Numbered from the stretch's first letter, positions 24,524-62,262 are shown. The stretch is 64,000 nt of DNA from an uncultured Gammaproteobacteria bacterium (GCA_964627195.1 CAZVJU010000003.1:14854-78853), one strand, 5' to 3'. The notes: generated by a model not told the origin, from the sequence alone. Numbers and translations are program-made.

Positions 24524-24642
24524 ATAGAAGTCCACAGCTAAAGCCGTGGTCCTTCGAGCTTCATTCGCCTTAGGCGAATGAATTTTCAATGATTCAATTC
24601 ATCCACGTCCAAAGACGTGAACTTCTTGAATTAGCTTAAAAG
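24524..24642 (+). repeat. MITE-like multi-hairpin element, copy 1 (119 nt)
   Basis: Terminal inverted repeats agaagtccac / gtgaacttct. Internal hairpins are ccacagc..gccgtgg, cattcgcc-tta-ggcgaatg and cacgtc-caaa-gacgtg. Copies also at 27473 and 62196. Confidence 0.75.
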
Positions 24643-24669
24643 TATTAACTTTTGAAGTAGGTTAATAAC

Positions 24670-25344
24670 TCAATCTAGAATATAATCTGATACAAATTCA
24701 TATTGTAAGTAATTGGCTCTATTATTTTGAACTAATAAGATATCTAACTCTGGCCATTTATTAGTTAGGTCTCTGATTTTCTCAAGGTTCATCCATTGAA
24801 TCTGTCTTCCCAGTTCCATTTTCGATCTATGGCTAGGATTTACGATTACTTGATAAATTGCAAAAGCGTCATCAAATAAAACTTCACCGGTTGATGTTTT
24901 TATAGTCTTTAAATGTAAGCTTAAATACTTGAAATTATTTGACTCAACTTCTAGACCAGTGTTTTCATAGAAAATACGAATTAAAGCTTTTTCAGTGTTT
25001 TCCCCAAAATGAGGCTTTCCACTCGGTAAGTTATAGAAATTTGTTTTTCCTCCCGGATGCTCCTTTACCAAAAAGTCATCTCCTGATTTACACACGAAGC
25101 CGATAAAAAATGTTTTGAAACCAGTGTCAGTTAATGAACTTAAATCGTATTTAGCAATTTCTTTAATTCCCACGGAACTAATCTTGTAAATATTGCTTGT
25201 CTTTTCTATAAATCCTTTTTTCAGGAGTTGTTTTAAGTGGAAGACAATATTATCTTCAAAGCTATAACCCCCTGTTAAAGAAGAATACTTTTGGTTGTTA
25301 TTTATTAACAGCCTCTTAAGAAATATCTTTTGGATTTCATGCAT
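24670..25344 (-). CDS. wHTH-Nudix-like protein, paralog 2
   Basis: 224 aa, alignable by eye across most of its length with 18196..18870. Same divergent arrangement with a VOC gene. Confidence 0.5.
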   Translation of the reverse strand: MHEIQKIFLKRLLINNNQKYSSLTGGYSFEDNIVFHLKQLLKKGFIEKTSNIYKISSVGIKEIAKYDLSSLTDTGFKTFFIGFVCKSGDDFLVKEHPGGKTNFYNLPSGKPHFGENTEKALIRIFYENTGLEVESNNFKYLSLHLKTIKTSTGEVLFDDAFAIYQVIVNPSHRSKMELGRQIQWMNLEKIRDLTNKWPELDILLVQNNRANYLQYEFVSDYILD

Positions 25345-25446
25345 AAATAGTAAGCTTAATTATAAGGCAACTTGGTGTAGCCGACTACCCTAGATAAATT
25401 AGTGTCAAAACGGTATTCTAGCTATGTTTGGAAGGAGGTGAGACCC

Positions 25447-25824
25447 ATGTTTAATAAACTATTCGCTGTTTGCCTTTTGGTTAATGATTTTGAAAAATCT
25501 TTTAAGTTTTATAAGGAAACCTTAGGACTAAAAGTAAAATCTCAAGAGGGAAAATTTGCTAATTTTAAATTAGGGGAAACCGAACTTGCTGTTTTCCAGA
25601 AAGATGAAGCAATAGCGATGTTCCCCAAGGAACATATGGGGAGTGGAGGTGGTGTTTCAATTGGTTTTCAAGTAGATAATGTAGAAAGAACTTGTAAAGA
25701 GTTAAAATCAAAAGAGGTAGAAATTTTTGAAGGACCAAAAAAAACTCCCTGGGGTCAGGAAGTGGCATATTTCAAAGATCCTGATGCAAATATCTGGGAG
25801 ATTTCTGAGCCTTTTGAAGAGTAA
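25447..25824 (+). CDS. VOC/glyoxalase family protein, paralog 2
   Basis: Homologous to 19137..19505. The start at MFNKLFAV is preceded by a GGAGGTGA RBS. The ORF track gives a longer ORF from 25402. Confidence 0.65.
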   Translation: MFNKLFAVCLLVNDFEKSFKFYKETLGLKVKSQEGKFANFKLGETELAVFQKDEAIAMFPKEHMGSGGGVSIGFQVDNVERTCKELKSKEVEIFEGPKKTPWGQEVAYFKDPDANIWEISEPFEE

Positions 25825-25832
25825 AGGCAACT

Positions 25833-25988
25833 ATGAAACTGGAGAAAAAAGAAACAATAGAGATAGCACCCATGTCTCCATTTCATTTTGACTCAACTTT
25901 TTTAAACCAGGTCACTTTCCGAGCAGTGATACCAAATGGGAATCAGGAAAAAGATGGCAAACCATGCTTTGGCGAAGAGAGAGGTTAG
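25833..25988 (+). other. 51-codon ORF fragment in a different frame that looks like the displaced N-terminus of the downstream HhH-GPD glycosylase gene
   Basis: Translation MKLEKKETIEIAPMSPFHFDSTFLNQVTF... resembles a glycosylase N-terminus. It overlaps the start of 25964..26785. Confidence 0.35.
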
Positions 25989-26785
25989 GATTGATTTATC
26001 AAAACGCTGGCAGCGACAAAAAAACCAAGATCAAGGTATCAGTTTACTCAAACAAAGTTTTCAATTCTGATTTCCTAGAAAGTTTAAAAAAGGAAATAAT
26101 CTGGAGGTTCAATCTCGACCTTAATTTAGCAGAATTCTACAAAGACGTTGGAAACGACCCACTTCTGTCTCCCATTATTAAAAAGTTCTACGGTCTTCGG
26201 CCAATGCATTACGGCTCATTATATGAGTATTTAATTATTGGCATTGTCCTTCAGAACGCGGTTGTCAGAAGAAGCGTTAGTATGCTTCAATCACTTTTTG
26301 AAAGATATGGTGAATTGTTTGAGTATGATAGCCAGAAACTTTGGTGCTACTGGGAACCAAAAGTTCTGGCTAAAGTAGATGATCAGGAATTAAGAGACTT
26401 GAAGGTGGGATACAGAGCAAAATCACTAATCAGAGTTTCTGAAATGTTTGCAGAGGGAGGAATTGATGAAGTGGGACTACGGAATAAAACCAAAGAGGAA
26501 CAAGAGAAGGTCCTAATTTCTCTTTATGGAGTCGGTCCCGCCACGCTCAGTTATATTATGTTTGATGCTTTTCACCATTGGGACTACTTAAGGACTATTT
26601 CTCCATGGGAGCAGAAGATTTATACACATATCTTTTTCAACAAAGACCATGAAAAAGAACTAGTACCAGTTACTAAAATGCTAAAACGCTTTGAAAGATG
26701 GGGGGGGGATGGAAAGCATTGGCTGTTCATTATGTGTGGGAAGATATTTGGTGGAAAAGAAGGAATCAACACATCGCTTGGTTAG
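25964..26785 (+). CDS. HhH-GPD superfamily DNA glycosylase (AlkA/Ogg-like), probably frameshifted at its 5' end
   Basis: Helix-hairpin-helix LYGVGPATLSYIMF followed by a catalytic Asp region. Confidence 0.65.
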   Translation: MLWRRERLGLIYQNAGSDKKTKIKVSVYSNKVFNSDFLESLKKEIIWRFNLDLNLAEFYKDVGNDPLLSPIIKKFYGLRPMHYGSLYEYLIIGIVLQNAVVRRSVSMLQSLFERYGELFEYDSQKLWCYWEPKVLAKVDDQELRDLKVGYRAKSLIRVSEMFAEGGIDEVGLRNKTKEEQEKVLISLYGVGPATLSYIMFDAFHHWDYLRTISPWEQKIYTHIFFNKDHEKELVPVTKMLKRFERWGGDGKHWLFIMCGKIFGGKEGINTSLG

Positions 26786-26883
26786 AAAAGCTAATTAGGG
26801 TATAAAAATTGGTTCCTAGTGTATCTTAACTATCTTCTCCAAAGTAGTTATAATAGATTCAGAATCGACTAAATTACCTAATT

Positions 26884-27450
26884 ATGAAGAAAGTTGTAAT
26901 AATACATTGCTGGGAGGGATATCCAGATTACTGTTGGTATCCACAGACTAAAAAAGAATTGGAAGACAAGGGTTTTGAAGTGATTGTTCCTCAAATGCCG
27001 GAGACCGCCATGCCTAGGCTGTCACTCTGGCTTCCCAAACTTCAGGAACTGGCTCCCAATCCCAATGAAAATTTGTATCTTGTGGGCCATAGCGCTGGTG
27101 TAATCACTATTATGAGGTATTTAGAAAATCTTAAAGAAAATCAACAAATAGGCGGAGTAGTATTTGTTGCCGGTTTTACTGATGATTTGGGTTATAAAGA
27201 GTTGAGTAATTTTTACGAAAGTCAGCTGAATTTTGAAAAAATAAAATCCGGTGCAAAACACTTTGTTGCGATACATTCTGATGATGATCCTTACGTCTCT
27301 CTCAAATACGGAGATATTTTCAGGGAAAAATTAGGAGCAGAAGTAATTATCAAGCATAATATGAAACACTTTTCAGGAGCGGGAGATAATGAAGAAAGTT
27401 GTACTTCTTTACCCGAAGTAGCACAGGCCATTATCAAATTAAGCAGTTAG
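26884..27450 (+). CDS. YdeN/RBBP9-like serine hydrolase (alpha/beta fold)
   Basis: GHSAG nucleophile elbow and Ser_hydrolase-like layout, 188 aa. Confidence 0.6.
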   Translation: MKKVVIIHCWEGYPDYCWYPQTKKELEDKGFEVIVPQMPETAMPRLSLWLPKLQELAPNPNENLYLVGHSAGVITIMRYLENLKENQQIGGVVFVAGFTDDLGYKELSNFYESQLNFEKIKSGAKHFVAIHSDDDPYVSLKYGDIFREKLGAEVIIKHNMKHFSGAGDNEESCTSLPEVAQAIIKLSS

Positions 27451-27472
27451 TTATAAGCAGGTTTGAAACATA

Positions 27473-27621
27473 ATAGAAGTCCACGGCTTTAAGCCGTGGT
27501 CCTTCGAGCTACATTCGCCACAGGCGTTTGAATTTTCAATGATTCAATTCATCCACGTATAAGCAAAGCTTGGCACCGCTTCGCGTTGTAAAGACGTGGA
27601 CTTCTTGAATTAGCTTAAAAG
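27473..27621 (+). repeat. MITE-like multi-hairpin element, copy 2 (149 nt, with a 31-nt internal insertion)
   Basis: Same termini and hairpins as copy 1. The first hairpin is perfect: ccacggc-tttaa-gccgtgg. There is an extra ataagcaaagcttggcaccgcttcgcgttgt inside the third hairpin. Confidence 0.75.
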
Positions 27622-27662
27622 GTTCTAGATTGGACTGACCAGTCAGTAAGAAGTAAAAATAT

Positions 27663-27697
27663 CCAGGTGTGTCTATCTGTATCACTCCTGATGTGAT
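27663..27697. repeat. Composite REP-like element: ccaggtgtgtctatct followed by tatcactcctgatgtgat
   Basis: Both halves recur at 30969-30984 and 31075-31094. There they are separated by a hairpin-rich 90-nt insert. Confidence 0.6.
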
Positions 27698-29193
27698 TTG
27701 ATATAGAGGTAAAAGGGAAGAGAATCGGAGTCCAACTTCTTTAAGTTGGGTAGATTAGCCTGGTCTGATAATAATATTCCATCATTCGGTAAAGTTTCCT
27801 TTTGTTCGTCTATTACACCGGGTAGTTTGGGAAAATAGATTGCTCTTGCGAATAGTTCGGGGTCTTTAATGTTTACGCCATCCAATCGTGCTACTCTGGT
27901 AGACAAAAAAGGCTGCAATTGTCTTTCCTTTACCTTTAGGTAAAGCTCTTTATATGGCTTATTGTAATCTTCAAGATGGTAAAAGATGTGATAAGTATCT
28001 TTGGGGTAGATAAACATATAATACCGCCAGAAATCAAAGTAATTAATCGTTATTAAGAAAAATAAAATGAAGCCAGTGTATTTAAATAAGCGATTTTTGT
28101 TATCTAATATCATTTTGATCCCTAGTGTAAAAAATATTGAGTAGAAAGGGACCATATAAAGTAAGCGATGTGCAAAAAAGGTTGAACCCACAAAACCAAA
28201 CAGGAGAGGGGAAATAAGAAAAGTTATCCCAAGTAATCTTAAATAATCAGAACCATTCCTGAATGTTTGATATATGCCGATTGCAAATATGGGCAGAGTG
28301 GATAAAAGGAACATCCCATGGCGCAGGGTTGATTGGACCAATAATTTATCGCCGGTAATAAATAAAAACGAGATGTCAAAGCTGGCTAAATAATAATAAA
28401 AGAAACTATATAGTGAGCTAATATTAAAACTTACACGATTTAGTACGGCGCCTCCGTAATAGTGTTCTAATAATGGAATTACGGCAAAAAACGGGAGCGC
28501 GGTTAAGGTAAATGTAAAAAGCGGTACTAAAAACTTCTTTCTAGTTAGAGTTTTTAAAGAAAGTTTTTGAGCCGGCCGGTTGAGATAAGAAATGTAGCCA
28601 ATGCTAATTAAAATCCAAATAGCTACCAACGGTCTTATCCCACCGTATGCATAAAAACCAGTACCCAAACTGAGAGCTGCAAAGATTAAATATTTATTAT
28701 CAAAACTTCGTCTGTATTTGAATAAACTGATTAGCCAAAGCAAAACAAAAGTAACCACAATCATATGTTCATATGGTGTATGAGTTACGATCATTACTTC
28801 AGGAATAATTATAAAAGAGATTAAGGTTATAAATGCGGATTTTTTGTCAAATAAAAGCCTGGCAAAATATAAAGTCAGAAGGGCAGAAATAACCGTAATT
28901 ACTACAGTTGCCAAACGCAATACGTAAACAGAAGGACCGAAGAGTTTAAAAAGCAAGGCAACCAAATACTGCATATATGGCGGATACCAAGTTACATTAT
29001 TTGATCCGAGAATAAATAGTGGTAAAAATCGTCCATGCGCATCGCGTAAGTTTTGAGCTAGTAAAATGCCATTATAGCCGTATGATGCCTCGTCTTCAGT
29101 AATACCGTTTGGAGTATCGGCAAGTCGGAAGGAGAAGAAAATAAATAAGAAAATTATTAAAATGCCTATAGAAAGGAAGGTTTTCGGTTTCAT
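27682..29193 (-). CDS. GT39/GT83-type (PMT/ArnT-like) integral-membrane glycosyltransferase
   Basis: 503-aa polytopic protein. The N-terminal DE-containing loop GITEDEASYGYNGILLAQNL is typical of PMT_2/ArnT-like enzymes. Confidence 0.65.
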   Translation of the reverse strand: MKPKTFLSIGILIIFLFIFFSFRLADTPNGITEDEASYGYNGILLAQNLRDAHGRFLPLFILGSNNVTWYPPYMQYLVALLFKLFGPSVYVLRLATVVITVISALLTLYFARLLFDKKSAFITLISFIIIPEVMIVTHTPYEHMIVVTFVLLWLISLFKYRRSFDNKYLIFAALSLGTGFYAYGGIRPLVAIWILISIGYISYLNRPAQKLSLKTLTRKKFLVPLFTFTLTALPFFAVIPLLEHYYGGAVLNRVSFNISSLYSFFYYYLASFDISFLFITGDKLLVQSTLRHGMFLLSTLPIFAIGIYQTFRNGSDYLRLLGITFLISPLLFGFVGSTFFAHRLLYMVPFYSIFFTLGIKMILDNKNRLFKYTGFILFFLITINYFDFWRYYMFIYPKDTYHIFYHLEDYNKPYKELYLKVKERQLQPFLSTRVARLDGVNIKDPELFARAIYFPKLPGVIDEQKETLPNDGILLSDQANLPNLKKLDSDSLPFYLYIKSHQE

Positions 29194-29439
29194 TTTCGAA
29201 ACAGTTATAGTTACAAGTATACATATTCTAATGCTTTCTGTTTAGATATAATTTACAACTCTCCATACCATTTTTGCTCTAATTCAATGGCGTATATCTC
29301 TTTATATTATCAACATGATGTTTATATTATGATAATAGAGATAAAGTAATAATAATGATGGTCAAAGGTACTAAAAGGTACCTTTGACAACATTTTCCAT
29401 TACGAAGAAAGTTGCGAATTATAGGGCTGGATTGATATA

Positions 29440-30753
29440 ATGCTCTCCATGTTACCAAAACAAAGAGAACGAGCTCCACAGATACCAGAATTTGTACACA
29501 AAGAGGTATTGTCGAACGGACTTCGAGTATTGGTTCACGAGATGCCGTGGGCGCAATCTGTTTCCGCAAGGTTCTTGGTAAAAGCGGGGCCCCGATATGA
29601 AGACGAAGTTACGACTGGCTCTGCCCATTACTTGGAACATATGTTCTTTGAAGGTAGCCAAAAGTATCCCTCACGCAGAGAGCTTGATAGAGCAGTTGAG
29701 AGCAGGGGCGGTGACCATAGTGCATACACTGACAAAGAGTATGTCATGTACCAAGCGAAACTTCCTACTGAAAGCGCAGATTTTGCTTCAGAATTTGTAA
29801 GGGAACTTGTCTTCAATCCAGTAATGGCCGAGGAGGCAGTTGAGCGAGAAAAAGGAGTAATTAGTGCTGAACTGCGAAGGTCAATCGATACGCCAGCTCA
29901 ACATAGATGGAACTTGTTGCGTCAACATGTGTGGAGTGGGCATCCTTTAGGACATAATACTCTGGGAACTTTTGATTCAATAGAGCGAATCAGCCGTCAA
30001 GATTTGCTAGGTTATCATACAAGGTTCTACCGACCCAACAATGCAATTTTAGTTGTGGTTGGCAATATCACCACACCGAGAGCGATTGATTTGGTGGCTC
30101 GGGATTTTGGTAGCCTTACGGCATCAGGTGACCAACTTCCTTCAATTCCTGCACCGATACAATCTGTTGACTCCAGAGTGCTGGTTGAAGAAAGAGATAT
30201 AAAGCAAGCACATCTTCTATTGGCTTTTGCAACTGATGGTCACGGTGAAAGCAGTCCCGTACTACCACAGATTCAAGTACTTTCAAGAATGCTACGCAAT
30301 AACATTTTCCATAAATTCGTATACGATTTAGGGTTCTCCTATTCGGCGGGATGTTATCCGTGGCTAGTCAGTGATAGTGGAAATATGGTTATCACCGTCG
30401 AAGTAGCACCAGAAAATACAGACCAGGCGGTAACAAGAATGGTTCAGGAAGTGAACAGCTTGAAAGTTGATGAGGAATCCGTACAAGAAGCAAAAGCAGG
30501 GGTTGTCAGCGATACTATTTTGAATCTTGCTGACACAGATGTATATGCTCATTTCATTGGAAAACAGGAGTTGTATACAGGAGCAGTAAAATCACCAGAA
30601 CAAGTGAGGGCAGATATTCAATCAGTTTCAGTCGAAGACATTCAGAAAACGAAAAGAACTCTACTGACTCGAAATAATGCAGCCATGGTTGTTCTTGGCC
30701 CAGTGCCACAGGGTAAAGCAAAAGAACTAGATGACATGCTAGTTTTTGCATAA
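29440..30753 (+). CDS. M16-family zinc peptidase (pitrilysin/insulinase-like)
   Basis: The inverted zincin motif HYLEHMFFEG (HxxEH) is present. Confidence 0.85.
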   Translation: MLSMLPKQRERAPQIPEFVHKEVLSNGLRVLVHEMPWAQSVSARFLVKAGPRYEDEVTTGSAHYLEHMFFEGSQKYPSRRELDRAVESRGGDHSAYTDKEYVMYQAKLPTESADFASEFVRELVFNPVMAEEAVEREKGVISAELRRSIDTPAQHRWNLLRQHVWSGHPLGHNTLGTFDSIERISRQDLLGYHTRFYRPNNAILVVVGNITTPRAIDLVARDFGSLTASGDQLPSIPAPIQSVDSRVLVEERDIKQAHLLLAFATDGHGESSPVLPQIQVLSRMLRNNIFHKFVYDLGFSYSAGCYPWLVSDSGNMVITVEVAPENTDQAVTRMVQEVNSLKVDEESVQEAKAGVVSDTILNLADTDVYAHFIGKQELYTGAVKSPEQVRADIQSVSVEDIQKTKRTLLTRNNAAMVVLGPVPQGKAKELDDMLVFA

Positions 30754-30968
30754 CACTACAATAAGCTCGACTTCTTCAAGTACGAGTTTCAAAAAATATC
30801 TCGCAGACTTCTGAGCTGTTATATTGATTTTGGATGGCAGATTTTCAGGGTGGGTAGGGGCCACCTTGCAAAGGCTAATGCGGGTTGGGGTTGAATCGGA
30901 TATGAAAGTGTCTCAAGTTGTTCTTCGAAGTAGGTTGTGACATACTCAACCAATGCCAGCAACAAAGT

Positions 30969-31094
30969 CCAGATGTGTCTATCTACAGATGTCACATTTT
31001 GAAATCGGACTAAAATGTGACATATGCTATAGAAATCACCACTAATATAGTCCTACTTCATAATGTGATTTCTATATATCACTCCTGGTGTGAT
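30969..31094. repeat. Interrupted composite REP-like element: ccagatgtgtctatct, two nested inverted repeats, then tatatcactcctggtgtgat
   Basis: The inverted repeats are tgtcacatttt/aaaatgtgaca and atagaaatcac/gtgatttctat. Compare the compact version at 27663-27697. Confidence 0.55.
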
Positions 31095-31149
31095 TAACTC
31101 TCGACCACCATCAATAGTAAAAATAATCATTTTATACTAAAATACCGTT

Positions 31150-31968
31150 GTGATTAGTGTTATCACACCATGTAAAAATATTGTTAGCGACGGCCGCGAA
31201 CCGTTTTTTAGAAAGATGTTTACTAGTCTGTTTAACCAGACCTATCGTGACTTCGAACATATTGTAATTGATGGAGCTTCAACAGATGGTACCTTAGATT
31301 TATTGCAAGAGTATAAACATAAACGATGTATCAATACCCTTGTCTCTAAGAAAGACAGAAATGTACACGAAGCCATGAATAGAGGAATTAGATTGGCACA
31401 GGGAAAATTCATCCATGTGATGAATTCAGATAACTATTTTCCTGATGAAAATTTTTTCTCTATCTCATTACAAGCGATAAAAGATAACCATGCCGATTTT
31501 ACTCACGCAGATAGAAGTATTGAAACTAGAGAAGGTAAATTCGTTGGAATAAAGCGAGGAGATGAACGCTCCGCGTTCTTCAGAATGCCTTTTAGATACC
31601 AAACTATGCTTATACGAAAAGGGGTGTATGACGAAATTGGCCCGTTTGATGAAAAATACGATATAGCAGCAGATTATAAGTTCATGCTGGAAATGCTACT
31701 TTCGGGAAAAAAGGGTCTTTATATTCCCAAAGTTTATATTTGTTCACTTGATGGAGGAATTACGTCAGACAGACCCAAAGTAATAAGAGAGGTTACCCAA
31801 GTATTATATGAATGCTACGGTAAACAATATGGGCTGACAAAAGATGATTGCCAGGATATCTATTTACGGAAAATATCTCCCGACTTGTTATCCAAAATTA
31901 ACGTACATATTCCAGATGAAAGAATAAAAGAATCTCTTAACTTCTGCTATGAATTATCACTTCACTAG
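31150..31968 (+). CDS. Family 2 glycosyltransferase
   Basis: GTG start. VISVITPCKN...DGASTDGT matches the GT2 N-terminal signature. Confidence 0.8.
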   Translation: MISVITPCKNIVSDGREPFFRKMFTSLFNQTYRDFEHIVIDGASTDGTLDLLQEYKHKRCINTLVSKKDRNVHEAMNRGIRLAQGKFIHVMNSDNYFPDENFFSISLQAIKDNHADFTHADRSIETREGKFVGIKRGDERSAFFRMPFRYQTMLIRKGVYDEIGPFDEKYDIAADYKFMLEMLLSGKKGLYIPKVYICSLDGGITSDRPKVIREVTQVLYECYGKQYGLTKDDCQDIYLRKISPDLLSKINVHIPDERIKESLNFCYELSLH

Positions 31969-32133
31969 GAATGAATTCGGAAACAGAATTAGCACAAAGG
32001 AAAAGAAAAGAAGAACAATGACATACTCCTCGCAGCAGAGCTGCGAAGGTATCTTACGATACAGTATGTCTTCTTGAATCTGCTCATCCTGCGCTGCAGA
32101 GCAACGAGGTATTCGCAGGTTCTAGAATAAAAA

Positions 32134-33159
32134 ATGGTTGCTACAGAGAAATTGCCTGCATTAAATGCCCCAGTTGAAAATTTTTCGCGTGGATTATTTC
32201 AAGCAGAAATTCCTGGATTGGGTAATCCTATTCGGGGTAAAGTACGTGATAACTGGATAATTAATAAGGGAAGTCAACAATTCAGGTTGATGGTGACAAC
32301 CGACCGTCAGTCTGCCTACGCCCGAACTGTTTGTACTGTTCCGGGCAAAGGACAGATTTCCAACCTCATTTCAGCATTTTGGTTTGAACATACCAAAGAT
32401 ATTATCCCAAATCATATGATAATGGTTCCTCATCTAAATATTCTTCTTGCAAGACAGGCAAAAGCTGTCGTTCCTGTTGAGGTTGTATTAAGAAGGTATT
32501 TGGCAAGAGGAATATCACCGACGTCGGTATATCACAATTATTTTAATCTAGGGAGAAGAGAGATTTATGGGATAAAGTTTCCTGATGATTTACGAGTTGA
32601 TCAGGAGTTTCCCATGGGAACAATACTCACGCCGACAACTAAAGCTAGAAACGGGCATGATCAAGAGTTAACGAATATTCAGGCGTGCGAGCTAGCAGAC
32701 GGTAACCTGAGAGATGGAACTTGGGATAAAGTAAAATCTTCAGCTTTTGAAATTTTTGAAAGGGCTAGAGCCTTCAGCCTAAGTAGAGGTCTAATTCTTG
32801 CGGATACAAAGATGGAATTTGGTCTTGATTCAGAGGACAATCTGATACTAATTGACGAAGTTCTTACTCCGGAATGTTCTCGATTTTGGCCTTGTAATAA
32901 ATACGCTGACCGATTTACCAGCGGAGAAAATCAGGATATTGACAAGGATGTATTGCTTAGATGGCTTATAAATAATGGGTTTGTTGGGGAAGGAGTAGTT
33001 CCCAAAATTCCAAGTGATGTAATTAATCAAATGGCTGAAATATACGAAGTTCCGTACAGGATGATTATGGGAAAAGATTTATTACCCTTAACTGATTCCA
33101 AATTGGTAAGTGAAGTTGCTTCCCAGTGTGTTTATAAGCTTCTTGAAGATAATAATTAA
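32134..33159 (+). CDS. purC: Phosphoribosylaminoimidazole-succinocarboxamide (SAICAR) synthase, long form
   Basis: The blocks GKVRD, RLMVTTDRQSAYARTV, LILADTKMEFG and LIDEVLTPECSRFW are present. Confidence 0.85.
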   Translation: MVATEKLPALNAPVENFSRGLFQAEIPGLGNPIRGKVRDNWIINKGSQQFRLMVTTDRQSAYARTVCTVPGKGQISNLISAFWFEHTKDIIPNHMIMVPHLNILLARQAKAVVPVEVVLRRYLARGISPTSVYHNYFNLGRREIYGIKFPDDLRVDQEFPMGTILTPTTKARNGHDQELTNIQACELADGNLRDGTWDKVKSSAFEIFERARAFSLSRGLILADTKMEFGLDSEDNLILIDEVLTPECSRFWPCNKYADRFTSGENQDIDKDVLLRWLINNGFVGEGVVPKIPSDVINQMAEIYEVPYRMIMGKDLLPLTDSKLVSEVASQCVYKLLEDNN

Positions 33160-51931: not shown

Positions 51932-51934
51932 AAA

Positions 51935-55026: not shown

Positions 55027-55031
55027 TATTA

Positions 55032-55616
55032 TCAGCCGACCAACTCTGCTTCATCTCCAATAACCATAATCCTACTTCCGGAAAGAATTCCGGACAAGAA
55101 GGGATCACGCCGTTTTTTTCTAAATTCAAATTCTTCTCTGCTCATCACAGTATAATTTATTTCCTTGCCGCGTTTTGACTCCTCTTTCCGAATTATGGCC
55201 GCAAGCTCCGGCAAAACTATCTCTCCTACAACAAGGATATCAACATCCTCATCGTGTTTTTTCTCTTTTCTCCTAACAAATCGCCCCGAAAACATGATAA
55301 AACTTACCTTACCAATTTTATTTTTGTTTGTAATTATGTCAGCCCCCAGACCTTTAGTCTTGGCAACAATTGACATTAGATCGCCAAAAAGGGGGTAGTC
55401 TGTCCGCATCCAGTAATACAATCTGTTTCCTCGAGACTCTTTCTTTACTAGTGCCGCTTTTTCAAATCTATCTAACTCCCGTCTGACAGCATTAATTTCT
55501 TCATGAATCTCACGAACTATCCCTCTAACATGATAAATTTCGCTTGTATCAGCTAAAAAAAGCTCCAATATCTTTATTCTTACTTTCGAAGTAATTATAT
55601 CTGACAAATCGGCCAT
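55032..55616 (-). CDS. wHTH transcriptional-regulator-like domain fused to a degenerate nucleotidyltransferase-like domain (hypothetical)
   Basis: The N-terminal ArsR-like helix KVRIKILELF and an internal HDEDVDILVVG Pol-beta-like block are present. Confidence 0.35.
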   Translation of the reverse strand: MADLSDIITSKVRIKILELFLADTSEIYHVRGIVREIHEEINAVRRELDRFEKAALVKKESRGNRLYYWMRTDYPLFGDLMSIVAKTKGLGADIITNKNKIGKVSFIMFSGRFVRRKEKKHDEDVDILVVGEIVLPELAAIIRKEESKRGKEINYTVMSREEFEFRKKRRDPFLSGILSGSRIMVIGDEAELVG

Positions 55617-55644
55617 TTATTTGAGGGCAGAAAAACGCGAGTCG

Positions 55645-56880
55645 TTAATAACTTATATCATTTCCTGCTGGAACAGCTTCAATCCAAATTTCTCCGCGAA
55701 CGAAAGTTATTTCAGCTCCTTTAGAATCAAAAAACCTCGTTCTATCGTTCTGAGTTCTTTTCTTCCAAGCAGCTTCTACTACATCTCCGTTTTGGAATAC
55801 CAGTGCCTTACCTTCGCCGGTTGTGGTATAGAACATGTGACCCTCTTTGTCAACTTCACCCCGCTCTTTAACAAATTGAATTACAACATTCTTAGTGCTA
55901 ATAGTCTGTTTGGTCTCAAAATCCTGATGCTCTTTACCTCCATTGAGCCGAATATACTTATTGCCTGTCTTGTCATACTTCCAACTCACATCATAGTCTC
56001 CCTTGTTGCTCCAAAATTCAAAAGAGATATCAGTATATTTGGAGTCGGTTAAAGGTTTCTCATCGGCAAATTTCCAACCTACAAAATTCTTAGTCCATGG
56101 ATCACCTTTAGAGTCTTCATATGCAAAACCCCTCTTTGTAGCTTCTTCAAATATTTTGTCCGTGTAGCCTTCATACGAATGCTCCCAAGCGGCTTTTTCT
56201 CCCAAGCGATATTGATTCCTAACTACTGCCGGCACACCCAAATTCGTACCTGCATCCATTGCATTCCCCTGTGAAACCCTCCAACCCAATTTAGCAAGAA
56301 GTTTAAAGGCATCAACTTCCGGTGCTATATCACCTCTGGGTTTAACTCCTGAAGGACAATTCACCGGATCATTGCAGATATTGTTTGCTCCGCCAGAATG
56401 CACAAAAATGGGATACTTACTGTATTCTGCCGCCCAGTCAACAAAATAAACGCGCACGCTTCGGATTGGCGCAATTCTTATATCTTTGACAGACGTGCCG
56501 CAATAAAGTACTGCCAAAAATCTTGTTATCCCACCTTCCGCTACAGCTTCATAAACTACGTCAGCGTATGATAAGCCCGACTGTGGTCTCGCCTCTAAAC
56601 TATTCTCAACCATGGCAGTCATAGGCCGCCGACTCTCCCATATATCTCTTTCCGGTTTACTAAACATTTTCCCATTTATCGGACATTCTTCAGTTTTTGG
56701 TAAATTCGGATCTATTCTTTCTCTACCTTCAGCAACGACTTTCTCAACTTCCTCAAGTCCACCCTTCATGGAAGAAAACAGTGCCCAAGAAGTACCTAGC
56801 GAAAACAAATAAAGGCCCAATAAACTTACAAAAACTCTGAAGCTTTTAGCTGAAATTAATTGTAAAATCTTGTCTTTCAT
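55645..56880 (-). CDS. DUF3048-domain protein (YerB-like), secreted/lipoprotein-like
   Basis: The block RPMTAMVENSLEARPQSGLSYADVVYEAVAEGGITRF matches the DUF3048 N-domain signature. Confidence 0.5.
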   Translation of the reverse strand: MKDKILQLISAKSFRVFVSLLGLYLFSLGTSWALFSSMKGGLEEVEKVVAEGRERIDPNLPKTEECPINGKMFSKPERDIWESRRPMTAMVENSLEARPQSGLSYADVVYEAVAEGGITRFLAVLYCGTSVKDIRIAPIRSVRVYFVDWAAEYSKYPIFVHSGGANNICNDPVNCPSGVKPRGDIAPEVDAFKLLAKLGWRVSQGNAMDAGTNLGVPAVVRNQYRLGEKAAWEHSYEGYTDKIFEEATKRGFAYEDSKGDPWTKNFVGWKFADEKPLTDSKYTDISFEFWSNKGDYDVSWKYDKTGNKYIRLNGGKEHQDFETKQTISTKNVVIQFVKERGEVDKEGHMFYTTTGEGKALVFQNGDVVEAAWKKRTQNDRTRFFDSKGAEITFVRGEIWIEAVPAGNDISY

Positions 56881-57362
56881 ACTGGTTTGCTCTTTAATGC
56901 TAATTTTAGACTCTTTTTCTCCTCTTCCGAAAGCTCTAGTTCACCTTTCCCGGTCTTTATACTTTTGACATACACTCTTGTCCTTTCACGCGTATGCAGT
57001 CCTGTTATTATAACTCCATTTTCGTTGGCATCCAAAAGTGCTAATGCAAAACTATGGTCCCCGCCAAGTTCTTTAAAGGGGTTAAACCTAACCAAACCTA
57101 CTTTTTGAACGTGTACCCTTTCCTCTTTCTCAAACCTTCTTAATATGCTAAAAACCTCGCTGAGATTTTTACTGTTCTCTTGCTCTTTTTCAAGCACTTT
57201 TTCAAGAATTGTAATAAGGTTATCCTTACCGACATCTCGCGAGAGCTGTCTGAAATGCCGTAGGGTTTGAATTACTATGGCAGTGAGCACTCCAAGCCAT
57301 ACAAAAACAAAAATCTGGATAAACAGATTTGTTGCCGGCGTAAAGAAAACTACATCTTGCAT
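56877..57362 (-). CDS. DUF4446-like membrane protein
   Basis: N-terminal TM segment plus VRFNPFKELGGDHSFALALLDANENGVIITGLHTRERTRVYVK. Confidence 0.45.
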   Translation of the reverse strand: MQDVVFFTPATNLFIQIFVFVWLGVLTAIVIQTLRHFRQLSRDVGKDNLITILEKVLEKEQENSKNLSEVFSILRRFEKEERVHVQKVGLVRFNPFKELGGDHSFALALLDANENGVIITGLHTRERTRVYVKSIKTGKGELELSEEEKKSLKLALKSKPV

Positions 57363-57478
57363 ATGGTAAAGAACTTGATGGGTAAATTAATGACTCAAAC
57401 ATTTTTACATCTTGTCATAAGCCTGTCAAGAAGGTATAAACAAGTTGATTTGCTCCGACCGATTAAGACGGAGTTAAA

Positions 57479-57775
57479 ATGAAAGAGGTAATGACTAAAA
57501 GACGCACACGAAAACAAAAAGAAAAAGCCAAACACACGTTCACAATTAGCTGGGACGGAGGCTACAAAGAAAGATCCGCAGATTCGAGTGTCAAGAGGCA
57601 ATTAGCAAGGCCTTCGAGGCAATCTCCAAGTAAAATTGCCGAAGACGAAAAAGCCAAACTTTTGGTAAAAGATGTGAATTTAGCTTCAACGAAGAAAGAT
57701 ATTATCAAAAGTTTGATTCTGGCTGGCTTCATTCTCGCTTCGGAAGTAGTGCTATACTTGGTTTGGAAGGTTTAA
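57479..57775 (+). CDS. Small basic hypothetical protein with C-terminal TM helix
   Basis: 98 aa, Lys/Arg-rich N-terminus. Confidence 0.3.
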   Translation: MKEVMTKRRTRKQKEKAKHTFTISWDGGYKERSADSSVKRQLARPSRQSPSKIAEDEKAKLLVKDVNLASTKKDIIKSLILAGFILASEVVLYLVWKV

Positions 57776-57814
57776 AATCTTCTGCCCTAACGAGAGGAGG
57801 TGAAGTTCATAAAT

Positions 57815-57952
57815 ATGTATTGTGTAAAATGTAGAGCAAAAAGAGAAGGTAAGAATCAGGAAACTGTCACAATGAAAAATGGCAAGAAAGCAATGAGAGC
57901 TGTCTGTGAGGTTTGTGGCACCAAGATGTTCAAAATCATGGGTAATGCCTAA
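57815..57952 (+). CDS. 45-aa zinc-ribbon protein (two CxxC pairs), below the ORF-track length cutoff
   Basis: A strong RBS GAGGAGGTGA lies 7 nt before the ATG. The translation is MYCVKCRAKREGKNQETVTMKNGKKAMRAVCEVCGTKMFKIMGNA and resembles DUF5679-type small proteins. Confidence 0.5.
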   Translation: MYCVKCRAKREGKNQETVTMKNGKKAMRAVCEVCGTKMFKIMGNA

Positions 57953-57976
57953 TCTTCTTTTTTCAAAAGAAACTTT

Positions 57977-58007
57977 CAAGAGAACCGAGCATGACTTGGT
58001 TCTCTTG
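57977..58007 (+). terminator. Perfect 10-bp stem hairpin (caagagaacc ... ggttctcttg) followed by GTTT, a possible terminator after the zinc-ribbon gene
   Basis: Read directly. The downstream T-tract is weak. Confidence 0.35.
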
Positions 58008-58027
58008 GTTTAAAAATATTTGTATAT

Positions 58028-58642
58028 ATGACTAGCAACTTCAGAAAAGTATTTTCGATCTTCAAAAAGTACTACAAATTAGTTCCACTAGAATATTTTA
58101 AGAAAGATCCGTATAAAACATTAATTTCAACAGTCCTTTCCTCACGTACAAAAGATGAAACCACACTTGAAGCTTCTAAGAGACTATTCCAAAAAGCCCA
58201 TAATATTAAAACACTTCACCAATTAAGCAATTTAACAATTCAACACTTAATCTTTCCGGTGGGTTTTTATAAAACTAAGGCAAGACATCTTAATATGCTT
58301 GCCGAAAAGATGTCAGAAGAATTCAAAGGAAAAATACCAACTAATCGCGAAGATCTAATGAAACTCCCGGGCGTTGGGAGAAAAACAGCAAACCTTGTAT
58401 TAAACCGGGCTTTTGGAGTTCCGGCTATAGCGGTTGACACTCACGTTCACAGAATCTCAAATTTATTAGGTTGGGTCAAAACACAAACTCCGCAAGAAAC
58501 TGAGAAAGAATTGGTCAAAATACTTCCGAAAAAATACTGGAGCGATATGAACCGTCTTTTCGTATCAATCGGCCGCCAGTTTACTACAAAGCAAAAACTT
58601 GAAGACTTTTTAAGAAGATATGATTTAGTTGCTGGCAACTAG
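58028..58642 (+). CDS. Endonuclease III-like HhH-GPD glycosylase lacking the C-terminal Fe-S Cys cluster
   Basis: LPGVGRKTANLVL (HhH) and VDTHVHRI are present. No CxxxxxxCxxC block follows. Confidence 0.7.
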   Translation: MTSNFRKVFSIFKKYYKLVPLEYFKKDPYKTLISTVLSSRTKDETTLEASKRLFQKAHNIKTLHQLSNLTIQHLIFPVGFYKTKARHLNMLAEKMSEEFKGKIPTNREDLMKLPGVGRKTANLVLNRAFGVPAIAVDTHVHRISNLLGWVKTQTPQETEKELVKILPKKYWSDMNRLFVSIGRQFTTKQKLEDFLRRYDLVAGN

Positions 58643-58645
58643 TAG

Positions 58646-59281
58646 TTAGTAGGCTGTGATTGCGACGGCGAAGGTGTTTTGGGCATAAATACAACTCCAA
58701 ACGTATTCTCCCCCTTCCAAAAGTTTTTTATGACCCAGGGTGTTTTCCCACAAAGAAACAGTTTTTTCCGGCGTCTCTCCCCCCATGGCCAAAAACTCTG
58801 CCATGTTTCCATACTTCTCGAAAATCCATTTTAAATCAACTCGTCTCTCCGCCATATTGCTAAATCCTACATGACCATCTAATTTGCCTAGTTCCAGTAG
58901 TTCGTTTAATCGAATTGAGGCAATTGTACAAAGCTCATCTCTCTGCTGGAGTGGATTAACACCCCGTTCCCCTCTTTTGTTATTAACGGCTGCCCACAGT
59001 TCAGGCCCACCCCAGTCAGCTTTTCGTGTAATCGCAACTTTAGGCAACAGTGTAGGTTGCGGGGTAGGTGTAGTAGTCGGACTGGGAGATATGTCAGATC
59101 TTTGCTCAATCAACTGGGCAAGTAATTCCTCTCCGCCCTTTCTCTTCCCGGCAACATAACCTTGCATTAAACCTAAGATATAGATAGCCAGAAACAAAGT
59201 AACAATAAAAGAAATAGCTAACACCGAGAGGATATTATCCGCAATGTATTTCACTGATATTTGTGTCTTAAAAAAGTTCAT
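58646..59281 (-). CDS. CAP/SCP-domain (YkwD-like) secreted protein with TM anchor and Pro/Thr linker
   Basis: CAP-like blocks are present after a PTTTPTPQPT linker. Confidence 0.55.
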   Translation of the reverse strand: MNFFKTQISVKYIADNILSVLAISFIVTLFLAIYILGLMQGYVAGKRKGGEELLAQLIEQRSDISPSPTTTPTPQPTLLPKVAITRKADWGGPELWAAVNNKRGERGVNPLQQRDELCTIASIRLNELLELGKLDGHVGFSNMAERRVDLKWIFEKYGNMAEFLAMGGETPEKTVSLWENTLGHKKLLEGGEYVWSCIYAQNTFAVAITAY

Positions 59282-59284
59282 ATC

Positions 59285-59722
59285 TCAAACAATTATGGTT
59301 ACAGGGCCATCCAATTTAGCTTGGATCTTCATATATTCTCCGAAACTTCCTGTCTCAACCTTCACATTAAGACTCCTAAGTTTAGCGATAAAATGGTCGT
59401 ATATTTTCTTAGCGTATTCGGGTCTGGCCGCCTTAATAAAGGAGGGCCTATTGCCGCCACTTGTATCAGCATACAAAGTAAACTGGGATACAGCCAAAAC
59501 CTCACCTGCCACTCCTTGAATAGAAAGGTTCATTTTGTCTTGCTGATCTGCCATTATACGCATTTTTGCTAATTTTTCAGCTAAAACTGCTGCGTCTGCC
59601 TCTGAATCTTTTTCACCGATGCCGACTAAAACTAGAAGCCCTTTGCCGATTTCGCCTACTAATTTAGTTGTCTTGGCAACCTCAACTGAAGCACTTTCAA
59701 CCCTTTGTATGACCAAGCGCAT
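59285..59722 (-). CDS. dtd: D-aminoacyl-tRNA deacylase
   Basis: MRLVIQRV start, SQFTLYAD and C-terminal GPVT are present. The ORF track gives a longer ORF to 59758. The start is chosen by family alignment. Confidence 0.85.
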   Translation of the reverse strand: MRLVIQRVESASVEVAKTTKLVGEIGKGLLVLVGIGEKDSEADAAVLAEKLAKMRIMADQQDKMNLSIQGVAGEVLAVSQFTLYADTSGGNRPSFIKAARPEYAKKIYDHFIAKLRSLNVKVETGSFGEYMKIQAKLDGPVTIIV

Positions 59723-59754
59723 AGACATATTGTATTTCAGGAAGGGTCTCTTGT

Positions 59755-59967
59755 TCAAATTTTGGGGTTTTTGCCTTTCTCAAGAATTTCCCAAAAATAC
59801 TTAATGATGAAGATTATCCAACCTACAACTATCACTAAAAAAATAAAATTAAAGACAAATCCCTGCGGTCTCACATAAGCATACAATAAGCCGATTACAA
59901 AAATAAACAATAGTCCCCCCAAAAAAACAAAATACTCCGCTATAAATCGGATAACTTTTTTAAACAT
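59755..59967 (-). CDS. Small hypothetical membrane protein
   Basis: 70 aa with 2 TM segments. Overlaps the track ORF 59285..59758 (dtd region) by 4 nt. Confidence 0.3.
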   Translation of the reverse strand: MFKKVIRFIAEYFVFLGGLLFIFVIGLLYAYVRPQGFVFNFIFLVIVVGWIIFIIKYFWEILEKGKNPKI

Positions 59968-60061
59968 TTCTCACTTAAATCATAGCTCTTTTTAGTCCTT
60001 CTGTCTTCTCTGAAGTTTTCAAAAATATATGACAAGTGATACTAAGTTTGATGCTTTATAA

Positions 60062-60598
60062 TTACTCTTCAACTATTAACTTTCCAATTTGTCCCATTTT
60101 TCTATGTTGGCCAACTGAACAATAATATTCAAACGTACCAACTTTATCTGCAACAAAGTTAATAGTCGTAGTTTCTCCTGCTTTGATTACCTCTCCATCA
60201 ACTGCCAGTTCATCAATATTAAAATCATGCATCATATCTTTTGCGCTGAGGATAACTTGAACTGTTTGACCTTTTTTTACCTTGACTTCTTTGGGATTGT
60301 AGTAGAAACTTCCTGCCTCAATATTTATAGTTTGTACTTGAGAATTATTTTCAACAGCCACCTCATCACCAACTATAGTCGGTTCTGTGACACTTGATTT
60401 CACACCCTGAACAGATTCTTGAGACGAAGCACTAGTAGTCGCTTGCTTTCCCAAACGTTTTACTAAAAACGTACCAACAACTACGAGCAGCACAATCGCA
60501 ATTCCCCAATAAAGCATAGGATTTGTTGATTTCGGATTTGGGGACACTTGCGTCTGTTGTAACTCTACGTTTTCTTTATCTTCATGCATAGTTATCAC
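60062..60598 (-). CDS. Cupredoxin-like (Cupredoxin_1) domain protein, membrane-anchored
   Basis: Candidate Cu ligands: His in MMHDF and Cys/His/Met in YYCSVGQHRKMGQIG. TM anchor present. Confidence 0.55.
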   Translation of the reverse strand: MITMHEDKENVELQQTQVSPNPKSTNPMLYWGIAIVLLVVVGTFLVKRLGKQATTSASSQESVQGVKSSVTEPTIVGDEVAVENNSQVQTINIEAGSFYYNPKEVKVKKGQTVQVILSAKDMMHDFNIDELAVDGEVIKAGETTTINFVADKVGTFEYYCSVGQHRKMGQIGKLIVEE

Positions 60599-60705
60599 CT
60601 CCTATCGCAGAGATATTATATGTGCCCAAGATCGCTTAGTCTACCAGGCAAAACTGAGGAAAGGCTGAAAATAGAACTGATATTGTATAATAGGACTAGT
60701 TATAT

Positions 60706-62196
60706 ATGCAATTAACACAAAAGGGTAAAGTTTACGCGTTAATTCTTCTCACCTCAGCACTTTTTTCGATTTCTGTAGTTACTTTCGGGTTTTTCCCCTA
60801 TTTTGGCCTCTCCGTATCCTTTATTGCTTTTATCTTTTTAGCCTACTATATAAAGAAAGATAAAACTCCGCTCGCTAAAATGTTCTTTCTTATTGCTCTT
60901 ATTCTGTCTGTCTTTTTAGCAATAAGAAGCGAGGGTGGGATAATTCTTCTTAATCTTGGCGCAATTTTCTACTTCGGAGCGCTTACACTACTATCCGAAA
61001 AGGAAAGTAGATTGGATAATTGGATTTATATATTTATAGCGCCTTTTTTTCTTTTTTCAAAAAGTCTTTTTACCAAAAATGACTATAATTTTGAATTAAA
61101 AAATTCTTTGACAAGAAAAGAAGGAGCTGAAAAAGTCATAAATTCACTTGTCGTAACCCTTGTAACCATATTAGTATTGGTCATTATTATCCCACTATTG
61201 GCTTCCGTAAACCCTTTCTTCGAAAAAATAGTTAGTAATCTGATAGACACACTTAGGCTACGGGATATTAAAATTACGGAAAAGTTATTCGAATGGAGTC
61301 TGAGGCTGGCATTTTTCTTTTTTCTCGTACTAATCGTCCCCAAATTGGCAACTTTTGTTAATAAGAAGTCTGGTCTTTCAGTCCTTTCATATCCGTCTTT
61401 TAATCTTTTAGTACCGAAAATTGCAGTAGCCTTGGTATTATCATTATTTTTTGTAACTCAACTTCAATTATATTTTTCTTCCGCCCAAACGCTGCAGGAT
61501 TTGGGGTACACCTACTCAAAATACACAAGAGAAGTTTTTGCTCAACTTTCGTTTGTGGCCGTTATTATCTTAGGCCTGATATATAACGATCAAACGAAAC
61601 AAAAAATAAATAGAAATTTAACCGTAGCGCTGGCAATTCAAGGGCTATTTCTAACATTTATGGCCTACAAAAGCGTTTATGAATATAGTATGGCCTGGGG
61701 TTTTACTTATAAAAGACTATTCGGTTTTACTATTGCCACTTGGATTTTGGGTGTATTTGCCATCTATCTGTTTACTTTTTACAGAAATCTTGGAAAAGGC
61801 ATATTCATCGTCCGGACTCTCATTTTCTCAGGACTAGTTCTTATTGCAGTAAACGCTTTAAACTTTGACTACCTCATCTATCATTTTCGAAAAGCTTCAA
61901 CTGGACAGGGAGTTGATCACAAGTATCTCACACGACTCTCAAGCGACTCCCTTTCATACAAAAATCAGCTTTACGAAATTACCCAGATATCCTCGGAAAC
62001 ACTAAGTGAGTCAGAAAAAAACCAAGCCGCCTCATACGGTTTATGGATGCTGCTTTATAAGATCGAACGATTACAGGAAAAATATGACAAACTTGATGTT
62101 CGAGGTTTTAACCTGCTGGAATATTTGCAATATCGGCAAATCAAAGATATAGACACCCAAATAGTCAGAAATAAATATGGGTTGCCTTTCCGCTAA
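60706..62196 (+). CDS. Polytopic membrane protein (DUF4153/4173-like), hypothetical
   Basis: 496 aa with more than 10 TM segments. Its stop codon overlaps the start of MITE-like copy 3. Confidence 0.35.
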   Translation: MQLTQKGKVYALILLTSALFSISVVTFGFFPYFGLSVSFIAFIFLAYYIKKDKTPLAKMFFLIALILSVFLAIRSEGGIILLNLGAIFYFGALTLLSEKESRLDNWIYIFIAPFFLFSKSLFTKNDYNFELKNSLTRKEGAEKVINSLVVTLVTILVLVIIIPLLASVNPFFEKIVSNLIDTLRLRDIKITEKLFEWSLRLAFFFFLVLIVPKLATFVNKKSGLSVLSYPSFNLLVPKIAVALVLSLFFVTQLQLYFSSAQTLQDLGYTYSKYTREVFAQLSFVAVIILGLIYNDQTKQKINRNLTVALAIQGLFLTFMAYKSVYEYSMAWGFTYKRLFGFTIATWILGVFAIYLFTFYRNLGKGIFIVRTLIFSGLVLIAVNALNFDYLIYHFRKASTGQGVDHKYLTRLSSDSLSYKNQLYEITQISSETLSESEKNQAASYGLWMLLYKIERLQEKYDKLDVRGFNLLEYLQYRQIKDIDTQIVRNKYGLPFR

Positions 62197-62262
62197 TAGA
62201 AGTCCACATCTTATGCCGTGGTCCTTCGAGCTACATTCGCCTTCGGCGAATGAATTTTCATT
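62196..62262 (+). repeat. MITE-like multi-hairpin element, copy 3 (truncated: left arm plus first two hairpins)
   Basis: atagaagtccacatcttatgccgtggtccttcgagctacattcgccttcggcgaatgaattttca. It diverges where the convergent gene 62258..63025 ends. Confidence 0.65.

Follow-up and report, generated by a model that had tools for sequence, protein, structure and literature searches.

A small palindromic repeat, probably mobile, in a putative Parcubacteria-like genome from groundwater

A small multi-hairpin element was found in three copies in a stretch of 64,000 nt (CAZVJU010000003.1:14854-78853 of assembly GCA_964627195.1, from an uncultured Gammaproteobacteria bacterium; this whole stretch is called the window). 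[quoted passage not shown] A MITE had been offered as one possibility in an earlier reading of the window, made from the sequence alone (the sequence-only reading). The part of that proposal that stands is the mobile repeat, as the element was observed in new contexts, at a site that is empty in another strain, inside a pseudogene, as deletion derivatives and in subfamilies. The MITE label itself fits less well, the right inverted repeat lying 16 nt inside the element, with no clear target-site duplication and no autonomous partner.

Structure and copies of the element

The three copies noticed from the sequence alone (Table 1) hold at their coordinates. All are on the plus strand, have sharp ends and contain an identical 18-mer, GCCGTGGTCCTTCGAGCT, for which 0.01 chance matches were expected. 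The shared sequence begins with ATAGAAG and finishes with GCTTAAA(AG), and the flanks beyond it are unrelated. The element was said to start 0-40 nt after a stop codon, and distances of 40, 22 and 0 nt from the upstream plus-strand stop codon were measured for copies 1, 2 and 3, respectively. It was also said to lie always downstream of a plus-strand gene, which is true of the window copies but one-sided, since all three lie between convergent genes and the element is antisense or within a pseudogene at other sites. The minus-strand stop codon is 28 nt (copy 1) or 61 nt (copy 2) from the right end, and is inside copy 3. This last copy fills the whole gap between the DUF4153 and NTP_transferase genes, both stop codons being built from element bases: its first base is the last A of the DUF4153 TAA, and the NTP_transferase TGA (62258-62260) is within it.

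The element is non-coding, contains no open reading frame (ORF) and occurs in forms of 118-149 nt (short form of ~118 nt, long form of ~148 nt). On the plus strand it is composed, in this order, of ATA, a left module (head AGAAGT and 7-bp GC-rich hairpin CCACGGC..GCCGTGG), the invariant core TCCTTCGAGCT, hairpin 2, TTTTC, a right module and a tail. The right module mirrors the left one (hairpin CCACGTC..GACGTGG followed by ACTTCT) and precedes the 16-nt tail TGAATTAGCTTAAA(AG). The end modules, AGAAGT-CCACGGC..GCCGTGG and CCACGTC..GACGTGG-ACTTCT, are ~55 nt apart, and in copy 1 an A/T-rich helix encloses the right one. The inverted core is AGAAGTCCAC...GTGGACTTCT (GTGAACTTCT in the version of copy 1). 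Overall, the inverted repeat consists of an 11-nt exact core in ~25-nt modules that are ~80% alike; it begins 2 nt from the left end and stops 16 nt before the right end. The inverted repeats that had been described as terminal are therefore present, with the right one inside the end, and the 31-nt insertion reported in copy 2 was located in the loop of the last hairpin.

Further copies, for which a genome search had been proposed with the sequence-only reading, were looked for in the JGI metagenomes with an exact-pattern scan, which gave 12 matches in 11 contigs (exact matching misses diverged copies). Once orthologues of the window were removed, four new insertion sites with unrelated flanks remained, all in aquifer metagenomes (sites A to D, Table 1; contigs are designated by L numbers). 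At least seven insertion sites with the same ends and unrelated flanks are thus known. The short form is found at three loci (copy 1, A and C) and the long form at two (copy 2 and D), which indicates that both size classes have propagated. Sites B, C and D each have the element between a pair of co-directional genes and antisense to both, in the case of B in the 79-nt gap of an apparent operon, and at six of the seven sites the 3' end of a gene is within 61 nt. Using a profile built from all known copies, no diverged extra copy was detected in the window or in ~0.5 Mb of analysed sequence.

A single genuine match was obtained among 185,579 species genomes; it comes from Parcubacteria group bacterium GW2011_GWB1_42_6, in a contig starting exactly at the element. 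The other 34 of the 35 18-mer matches in this collection were single chance matches in GC-rich genomes; the one that was checked (L012) was unrelated coding sequence. Viral collections contained no genuine match, the candidate L047 being a chance match within a GC-rich phage gene, and phage and plasmid collections gave no BLAST match. Contigs near-identical to the window come from groundwater metagenomes. From these matches we infer that the host is a Parcubacteria-like population of the candidate phyla radiation (CPR), living in groundwater or aquifers. The GW2011_GWB1_42_6 contig (LCEC01000011.1; L031:1-900) has 510 nt in common with the window (99.4%), ending in the middle of the NUDIX gene, and continues with pheT; it could be a chimeric assembly or a rearrangement.

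Insertion, recombination and mechanism

Empty sites in related strains, another check proposed beforehand, were found for copy 1. Its site is empty in contig L051/L063, whose identity to the window amounts to 99.9% to the right of copy 1 and 94% to the left, and in which the flanking genes are intact. This allele is without 24527-24661 and its junction reads ...GTTTCATA-TAGTAC-TTTATAATTCAATC. Copy 2 is absent from a relative (L100, Ser hydrolase 79% identical) whose sequence after the stop codon tracks the window as far as ...AACATA and diverges from it precisely where copy 2 has its left end; this is the nearest of the Ser hydrolase relatives found, and is too distant for a nucleotide footprint to the right of the copy. 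Five flanking genes were looked up by exact protein match, which yielded the empty allele of copy 1 only. Copy A interrupts a decayed AlkD (DNA_alkylation) pseudogene (L042:929-1812), which reads ...LLILGNQ, then the element, after which the frame resumes with KADKNLKAKI; more stop codons and frameshifts are found downstream of the copy.

No target-site duplication was found outside the conserved block at the six complete sites. ATA stands before GAAG at 7/7 sites and TTAAA closes the block at 6/6 sites, and the TA inside both block ends fits a duplication or none. Intact AlkD homologues have three residues at the junction, which means that ~5 nt of the block ends would be derived from the target. 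Judging from these bases, insertion may have taken place into an A/T-rich pentanucleotide, either as A-TA-AA with the TA duplicated (restoring QYKKAD) or 5' of TTAAA without duplication (restoring QFKKAD). At A, B and D, GCAAC(C) precedes the element by 3-12 nt, with ACAACC at C and the inverse GGTTGCC at copy 3 (62180-62195), against ~0.1 such 5-mers expected by chance; this could be a target preference or chance.

The copies of the element are mosaics. When the hairpin-1 type (GGCTTTAAGCC or ATCTTATGCC) is crossed with the hairpin-2 type (ACA/TTTG or TTC/AATG), all four combinations are observed, in copy 2, in B, in A and D, and in copy 3. Hybrid contigs were also found: in L049/L058 the left flank of copy 2 is joined to the right flank of B, and the second kind, L069 and L071, comes from two samples and has the left flank of C followed by the truncated right side of copy 3. 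L071 was assembled at k=127 and its parents share only 51 exact bases, so that reads spanning the junction must exist. Crossovers map between hairpin 1 and hairpin 2, in the invariant core, which is the longest identical tract, and reciprocal products were not seen. An identical core of 26-28 nt would let the copies recombine. Many contigs end within the element, where assemblies break. In the right arm of copy A (L042:1263-1306), ACTTCT is changed to ATGAAT, which makes a perfect 12-bp hairpin (TTCATCCACGTC/GACGTGGATGAA) at the expense of the inverted repeat; from its sequence, this change is an apparent hairpin-templated correction (quasipalindrome, template switch) in single-stranded DNA.

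For a selfish mobile repeat, the copies would be produced in trans, by an enzyme whose gene is located elsewhere in the genome and which recognises the head-plus-hairpin end modules. They would persist chiefly beside the 3' ends of genes, where harm would be least, and their hairpins would probably act, incidentally and in either orientation, as transcription barriers or as stabilisers of RNA 3' ends. Because each end is palindromic with a non-palindromic head and the ends are inverted, a REPIN-like route through single-stranded DNA and an HUH/Y1-type enzyme is tentatively favoured, at somewhat under even odds. DDE-type inverted repeats need no internal palindromy. A DDE-type MITE route is given a smaller share, well below half, and the remainder is left for something else.

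Several observations weigh against a mobile repeat of this class. No unambiguous target-site duplication is seen, the sole empty allele comes from a divergent strain (94% in the left flank) and leaves no clean footprint, and site A was occupied in 9/9 contigs examined, from several samples. For a DDE-type MITE, a right inverted repeat 16 nt from the end is atypical. No DDE transposase or integrase was found in 55 ORFs of the window or in 10 ORFs beside copies A-D, and no autonomous element with the same ends in the window, the fetched loci or the exact-pattern matches in genome, metagenome and viral collections, where diverged partners would escape. The sole transposase-like gene (17379-18044) carries a different palindrome, ATCACCCGTCAGGTGAT. 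Seven sites are also far below typical MITE or REPIN families, although exact-match scans overlook diverged copies. Finally, the hybrid contigs could partly be assembly chimeras, the ANAN16 scaffolds being the most exposed.

Folding, rival explanations and known repeat classes

The sequence-only reading had claimed that differences between copies preserve pairing in the stems, which was taken as a sign of selection on structure, with a structured 3'-untranslated-region RNA as one possibility. The window copies do fold better than shuffles (z = -5.9, -3.7 and -2.8 for copies 1, 2 and 3). Covariation was tested on five helices (37 pairs, 10 rows from 7 loci) against column shuffles and is nil: 26 pairs are invariant, 0 have changes in both partners, and in 8 the only departures are unpaired cells; paired cells amount to 92.3% versus 92.2% in shuffles, and the covariation score equals that of shuffles. 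Stem differences break pairs, such as G>A (A.C mismatch) in hairpin 1 of copy 1, GG>AT in copies 3, A and D (two hairpin-1 mismatches in copy 3) and, in hairpin 2, AA>TT (copies 2, A and D). In the example that had been put forward (cattcgcc-tta-ggcgaatg versus cattcgcc-ttc-ggcgaatg), the difference is in the loop only. In hairpin 1, a T-A pair is restored by one SNP that distinguishes L045 from L046, a single event.

Both strands of the element fold about equally well (for copy 1, -39.8 kcal/mol on the plus strand and -49.1 kcal/mol on the minus strand), and the local hairpins of copies C and D face competition from long-range pairing between the two ends. Wobble-compatible transitions favour the minus strand in three cases and the plus strand in one, which is not significant. 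In Rfam 15 nothing was found at the gathering threshold and, at E<=10, just a 23.6-bit match to BSnc120 (cut-off 114). With no covariation, broken stem pairs, equally good folding of the two strands, mixed orientation and no Rfam family, the earlier argument for a structure kept by selection is not supported: covariation shows no trace of such maintenance, and the palindromic design is best read, from the alignment, as inherited from a young common source (copies ~90% alike).

Some of these observations bear on the functional alternative, in which the multi-hairpin structure is kept for terminating transcription or protecting the 3' ends of mRNAs, mobility being secondary. Besides the strong folds (z to -5.9) and the restored T-A pair, the location of the element speaks for it: the window copies lie between convergent genes, and most sites are close to a gene 3' end (6/7 within 61 nt). 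Both truncated forms (copy 3 and B) also retain hairpins 1 and 2. A scan with a terminator consensus accepted hairpin 2 with TTTTC of copy 1 (plus strand) and hairpin 1 of copy 2 (minus strand), with 6 sites versus 2.3 expected in 4 kb. However, purifying selection alone in a compact genome would give a location at 3' ends, and orientation with respect to transcription is mixed, with a same-strand gene upstream of copies 1-3, a same-strand pseudogene, hence a dead gene, around copy A, and antisense copies at B, C and D. Copy 1 is absent in a strain whose flanking genes are intact and, as said, none of the 37 pairs covaries, the stem differences mostly break pairs and Rfam has no match. A functional 3'-end RNA or terminator was thus considered unlikely. 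About as unlikely is a more ambitious version of the mobile reading, a true REPIN-type replicator in a CPR bacterium that would be copied via single-stranded hairpins by a domesticated HUH/Y1 transposase, its core serving as a preferred crossover that swaps accessory genes between strains. If true, it would carry REPIN-RAYT systems (RAYT, REP-associated tyrosine transposase) well past Proteobacteria into ultra-small genomes.

Slightly less probable again is that the element is a REPIN moved specifically by the product of the RAYT-like Y1 transposase gene at 17379-18044, the only transposase-like gene of the window. This gene has both Y1_Tnp and REP_Tyr_transpos matches and HUH and YIHLNPV motifs, and stands as a single copy in one fixed context (in 18 contigs), as RAYTs do; the element itself is built like a REPIN, its two palindromic modules being inverted and provided with heads. 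On the other side, the NCBIfam score of the gene (45.8) is under the family cut-off of 80, and its flanks carry their own palindrome type, AGGTGTGT-N13-ATCACCTGACGGGTGAT, present as a single inverted copy on the left side and as two tandem 46-mers on the right side. This type (ATCACCCGTCAGGTGAT) is unrelated to the CCACGGC..GCCGTGG of the element and has solo copies of its own (Table 1). Each RAYT is flanked by its own REP type (PMC3337134), so that a RAYT-like gene with its own, different palindrome is not an obvious mobiliser of the element.

The RAYT-like gene and its repeat array form a REPtron-like arrangement, and strains differ there by one 46-mer (151 versus 105 nt to the next gene). 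The solo palindrome at 30970-31095 is split by a nested two-hairpin insert of ~85 nt (30985-31068), which is also found beside copy B in another contig (L037:2126-2224). Beside copy A, an ORF that equals the RAYT-like one in length (221 aa) encodes a PIG-L deacetylase and is unrelated to it.

A dedicated recombinase, for which the core would be the crossover of a site-specific recombination site swapping flanking genes between strains, was considered improbable. Hybrid junctions and mosaics do cross over in the invariant core of 18-28 nt, and the flanking genes are largely accessory (NUDIX, glyoxalase, glycosyltransferases, a toxin-antitoxin pair). However, the core is simply the longest identical tract, where homologous recombination is expected, there are no reciprocal products, and neither an integrase or recombinase in the window or fetched loci nor attC-like R''/R' boxes were found. 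Remnants of larger gene-plus-flank duplications, which had been named as what would overturn the sequence-only reading and which a paralogous NUDIX/glyoxalase pair (18196-19505 and 24670-25824, the latter near copy 1) could suggest, are refuted by flank alignments: similarity stops at the same bases at 7/7 sites and is unrelated beyond, copies share no flank sequence, and the pair at 18196-19505 is without a copy.

The element was compared with known repeat classes, using published definitions for MITEs (PMC11602168) and REPINs (PMC3337134). Among the traits of MITEs, small size (50-800 bp range), absence of coding sequence, unrelated flanks and insertion polymorphism between strains were all observed, and a cognate autonomous insertion sequence (IS) was not. 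The class further calls for terminal inverted repeats of at least 10-15 bp, compared with an exact core of 11 nt here, and for a target-site duplication of 2-10 bp, for which the TA of the block ends is a candidate. Among those of REPINs, two inverted palindromic modules were observed, but neither, in the window, a RAYT with the same REP type nor abundance (3 copies in its 64 kb and 7 sites altogether). The element is a new family of the general class, lacking at least one defining property of each of the closest known kinds. It was filed only under the general class, since REPIN fails on the flanks of a cognate RAYT and on copy number, and MITE on the non-terminal repeat, the unproven duplication and the missing partner IS.

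Like the REPINs and BIMEs (bacterial interspersed mosaic elements) of Pseudomonas and Enterobacteria, the element has inverted GC-rich palindromic modules with heads around a spacer, is mostly extragenic near 3' ends, forms hairpins on either strand, leaves no clear duplication, and has a RAYT-like HUH gene in the same genome. Unlike them, it is accompanied by a RAYT-like gene with a different palindrome, has ~7 sites instead of tens to hundreds of copies, carries an extra internal hairpin and an asymmetric 16-nt tail, and resides in a CPR host. With Correia elements (Neisseria) and RUP (Streptococcus pneumoniae), which are TA-targeting MITEs, it shares a non-coding length of ~100-150 nt, inverted repeats of ~25 nt, two size classes distinguished by an internal segment, an intergenic location with occasional gene disruption, and a TA at both element junctions compatible with TA duplication; it differs in its right inverted repeat, which is not terminal, and in having no known cognate IS630-like or other IS. 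The small repeats BOX, RUP and SPRITE of pneumococci cluster (PMC10969869), and copies of the element likewise cluster and nest with other small repeats.

Palindrome-associated transposable elements (PATEs) of the IS200/IS605 type also have sub-terminal hairpins unequally far from the ends (here ~5-8 nt and ~16-22 nt) and no obvious duplication; the invariant A/T-rich ATA and TTAAA that abut the element ends could be a target or cleavage motif of this kind. Unlike in PATEs, the ends of the element are also inverted repeats beyond the hairpins, and no IS200/IS605 copy with these ends was found. ERIC/IRU and SPRITE-type repeats, which are terminator-like, are imperfect palindromes of ~100-130 nt that are transcribed with their neighbours, often at 3' ends, and whose hairpins can affect mRNA fate (PMC10969869). 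The element has no sequence similarity to them, and only its hairpin 2 has a U-tract, on one strand only.

Integron attC sites have R''/L''...L'/R' boxes (RYYYAAC ... GTTRRRY) and a nearby IntI integrase. An attC site was rejected, as the element ends are ATAGAAG... and ...GCTTAAA and the window encodes no integrase. Diversity-generating retroelement, retron and omega-RNA readings were discarded along with it (no reverse transcriptase, TnpB/IscB, integrase or Rfam match).

CPR genomes are of ~1 Mb and are thought to be poor in mobile DNA. No report of MITEs, REP-type repeats, REPINs or RAYTs in CPR bacteria was found in the literature. The present data indicate that CPR genomes do carry small non-autonomous repeats, of which at least three kinds occur in this window, and that copies of the element come and go between co-existing strains. 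The element marks points of flank exchange and assembly breaks in aquifer metagenomes, which is of use for genome curation and strain tracking. Its bearing on the evolution of mobile DNA is modest, and no new kind of RNA or mechanism is revealed.

Other features of the region

Coordinates of the element, its parts and the RAYT-like gene are collected in Table 1.

Table 1. Coordinates of the element copies, their parts and the RAYT-type features (window positions unless an L contig is given)
Feature	Coordinates	Strand	Remarks
Copy 1, short form	24524-24642	+	119 nt; PNPOx-like gene (24085-24483 +) on left, NUDIX gene (24670-25344 -) on right
Copy 2, long form	27473-27621	+	149 nt; Ser_hydrolase gene (26884-27450 +) on left, PMT_2 gene (27682-29193 -) on right
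Copy 3, 5' 65 nt only	62196-62260 (to 62262 in feature listing)	+	Left module, core and hairpin 2; between DUF4153 (60706-62196 +) and NTP_transferase (62258-63025 -)
Copy 1, left end module	24526-24549	+	Head AGAAGT and hairpin CCACAGC-TAAA-GCCGTGG, one A.C mismatch; inverted-repeat core 24526-24535
Invariant 18-nt core GCCGTGGTCCTTCGAGCT	24543-24560	+	Crossover points of hybrid contigs and mosaic copies map here
Hairpin 2, TTCATTCGCC-TTA-GGCGAATGAA, then TTTTC	24560-24582	+	Terminator-like on the plus strand
Copy 1, right end module	24603-24626	+	Hairpin CCACGTC-CAAA-GACGTGA and inverted head ACTTCT
3' tail TGAATTAGCTTAAAAG	24627-24642	+	16 nt outside the inverted repeat; conserved in every complete copy, kept in the 73-nt deletion form
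31-nt segment of copy 2	27559-27589	+	Replaces 2 nt in apical loop of last hairpin; also in copy D (L045/L046)
Site A	L042:1197-1314		Short form
Site B	L043:3871-3943		73-nt form, without everything between two TGAATT direct repeats, both ends kept
Site C	L038:4563-4680		Short form
Site D	L045:25-171, L046		Long form with the 31-nt segment of copy 2
RAYT-like HUH/Y1 gene, 221 aa	17379-18044		Y1_Tnp E = 4e-8; NCBIfam REP_Tyr_transpos E = 5e-12; HUH (HFH) and YIHLNPV motifs
RAYT-side array	17282-18128		Four tandem 11-mers GGTAATCACCC (17282-17325), palindrome ATCACCCGTCAGGTGAT (17319-17335), two tandem 46-mers (18037-18128)
Solo RAYT-type palindromes	27665-27705, 30970-31095		First 44 nt right of copy 2; second upstream of GT2 gene

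The window is otherwise ordinary chromosomal DNA, with genes for Lon, GluRS, a class II aaRS, RelA/SpoT, RecJ, the CCA-adding enzyme, SecDF, cell-wall and glycosylation functions, and two tRNAs. GC skew across it tracks gene orientation and says nothing on the replication strand. A 43-nt repeat (..AAAATAGGTTCGAACAGCGTCCACAGTTCGCAGC) is present at 17179-17221, 21765-21807 and 23004-23046, in each case with its start exactly 15 nt ahead of the stop codon that ends a small ORF (176, 106 and 110 aa, none with a Pfam match); assemblies are interrupted at this repeat too, L059 ending at 23025. A near-perfect palindrome of 58 nt (CACACCGGGTGTGTGATTCAAATTGATAA and its complement) lies between divergent genes at 11994-12051.

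The divergent pair of NUDIX (minus strand) and glyoxalase (plus strand) genes, already cited at its two locations, has NUDIX copies ~44% identical over 117 aligned residues. Small 'housecleaning' genes (HAD, PNPOx, CYTH, HhH-GPD, Ser hydrolase) abound in the region of 17-27 kb. At 1603-3453, within the low-GC first 4 kb, lie an AbiEii fragment and a toxin-antitoxin pair of the MNT/HEPN type (Polbeta plus HepT-like). An indel of ~94 nt separates strains in the SLT-domain gene at 63378-63513 (L067/L074 versus the window).

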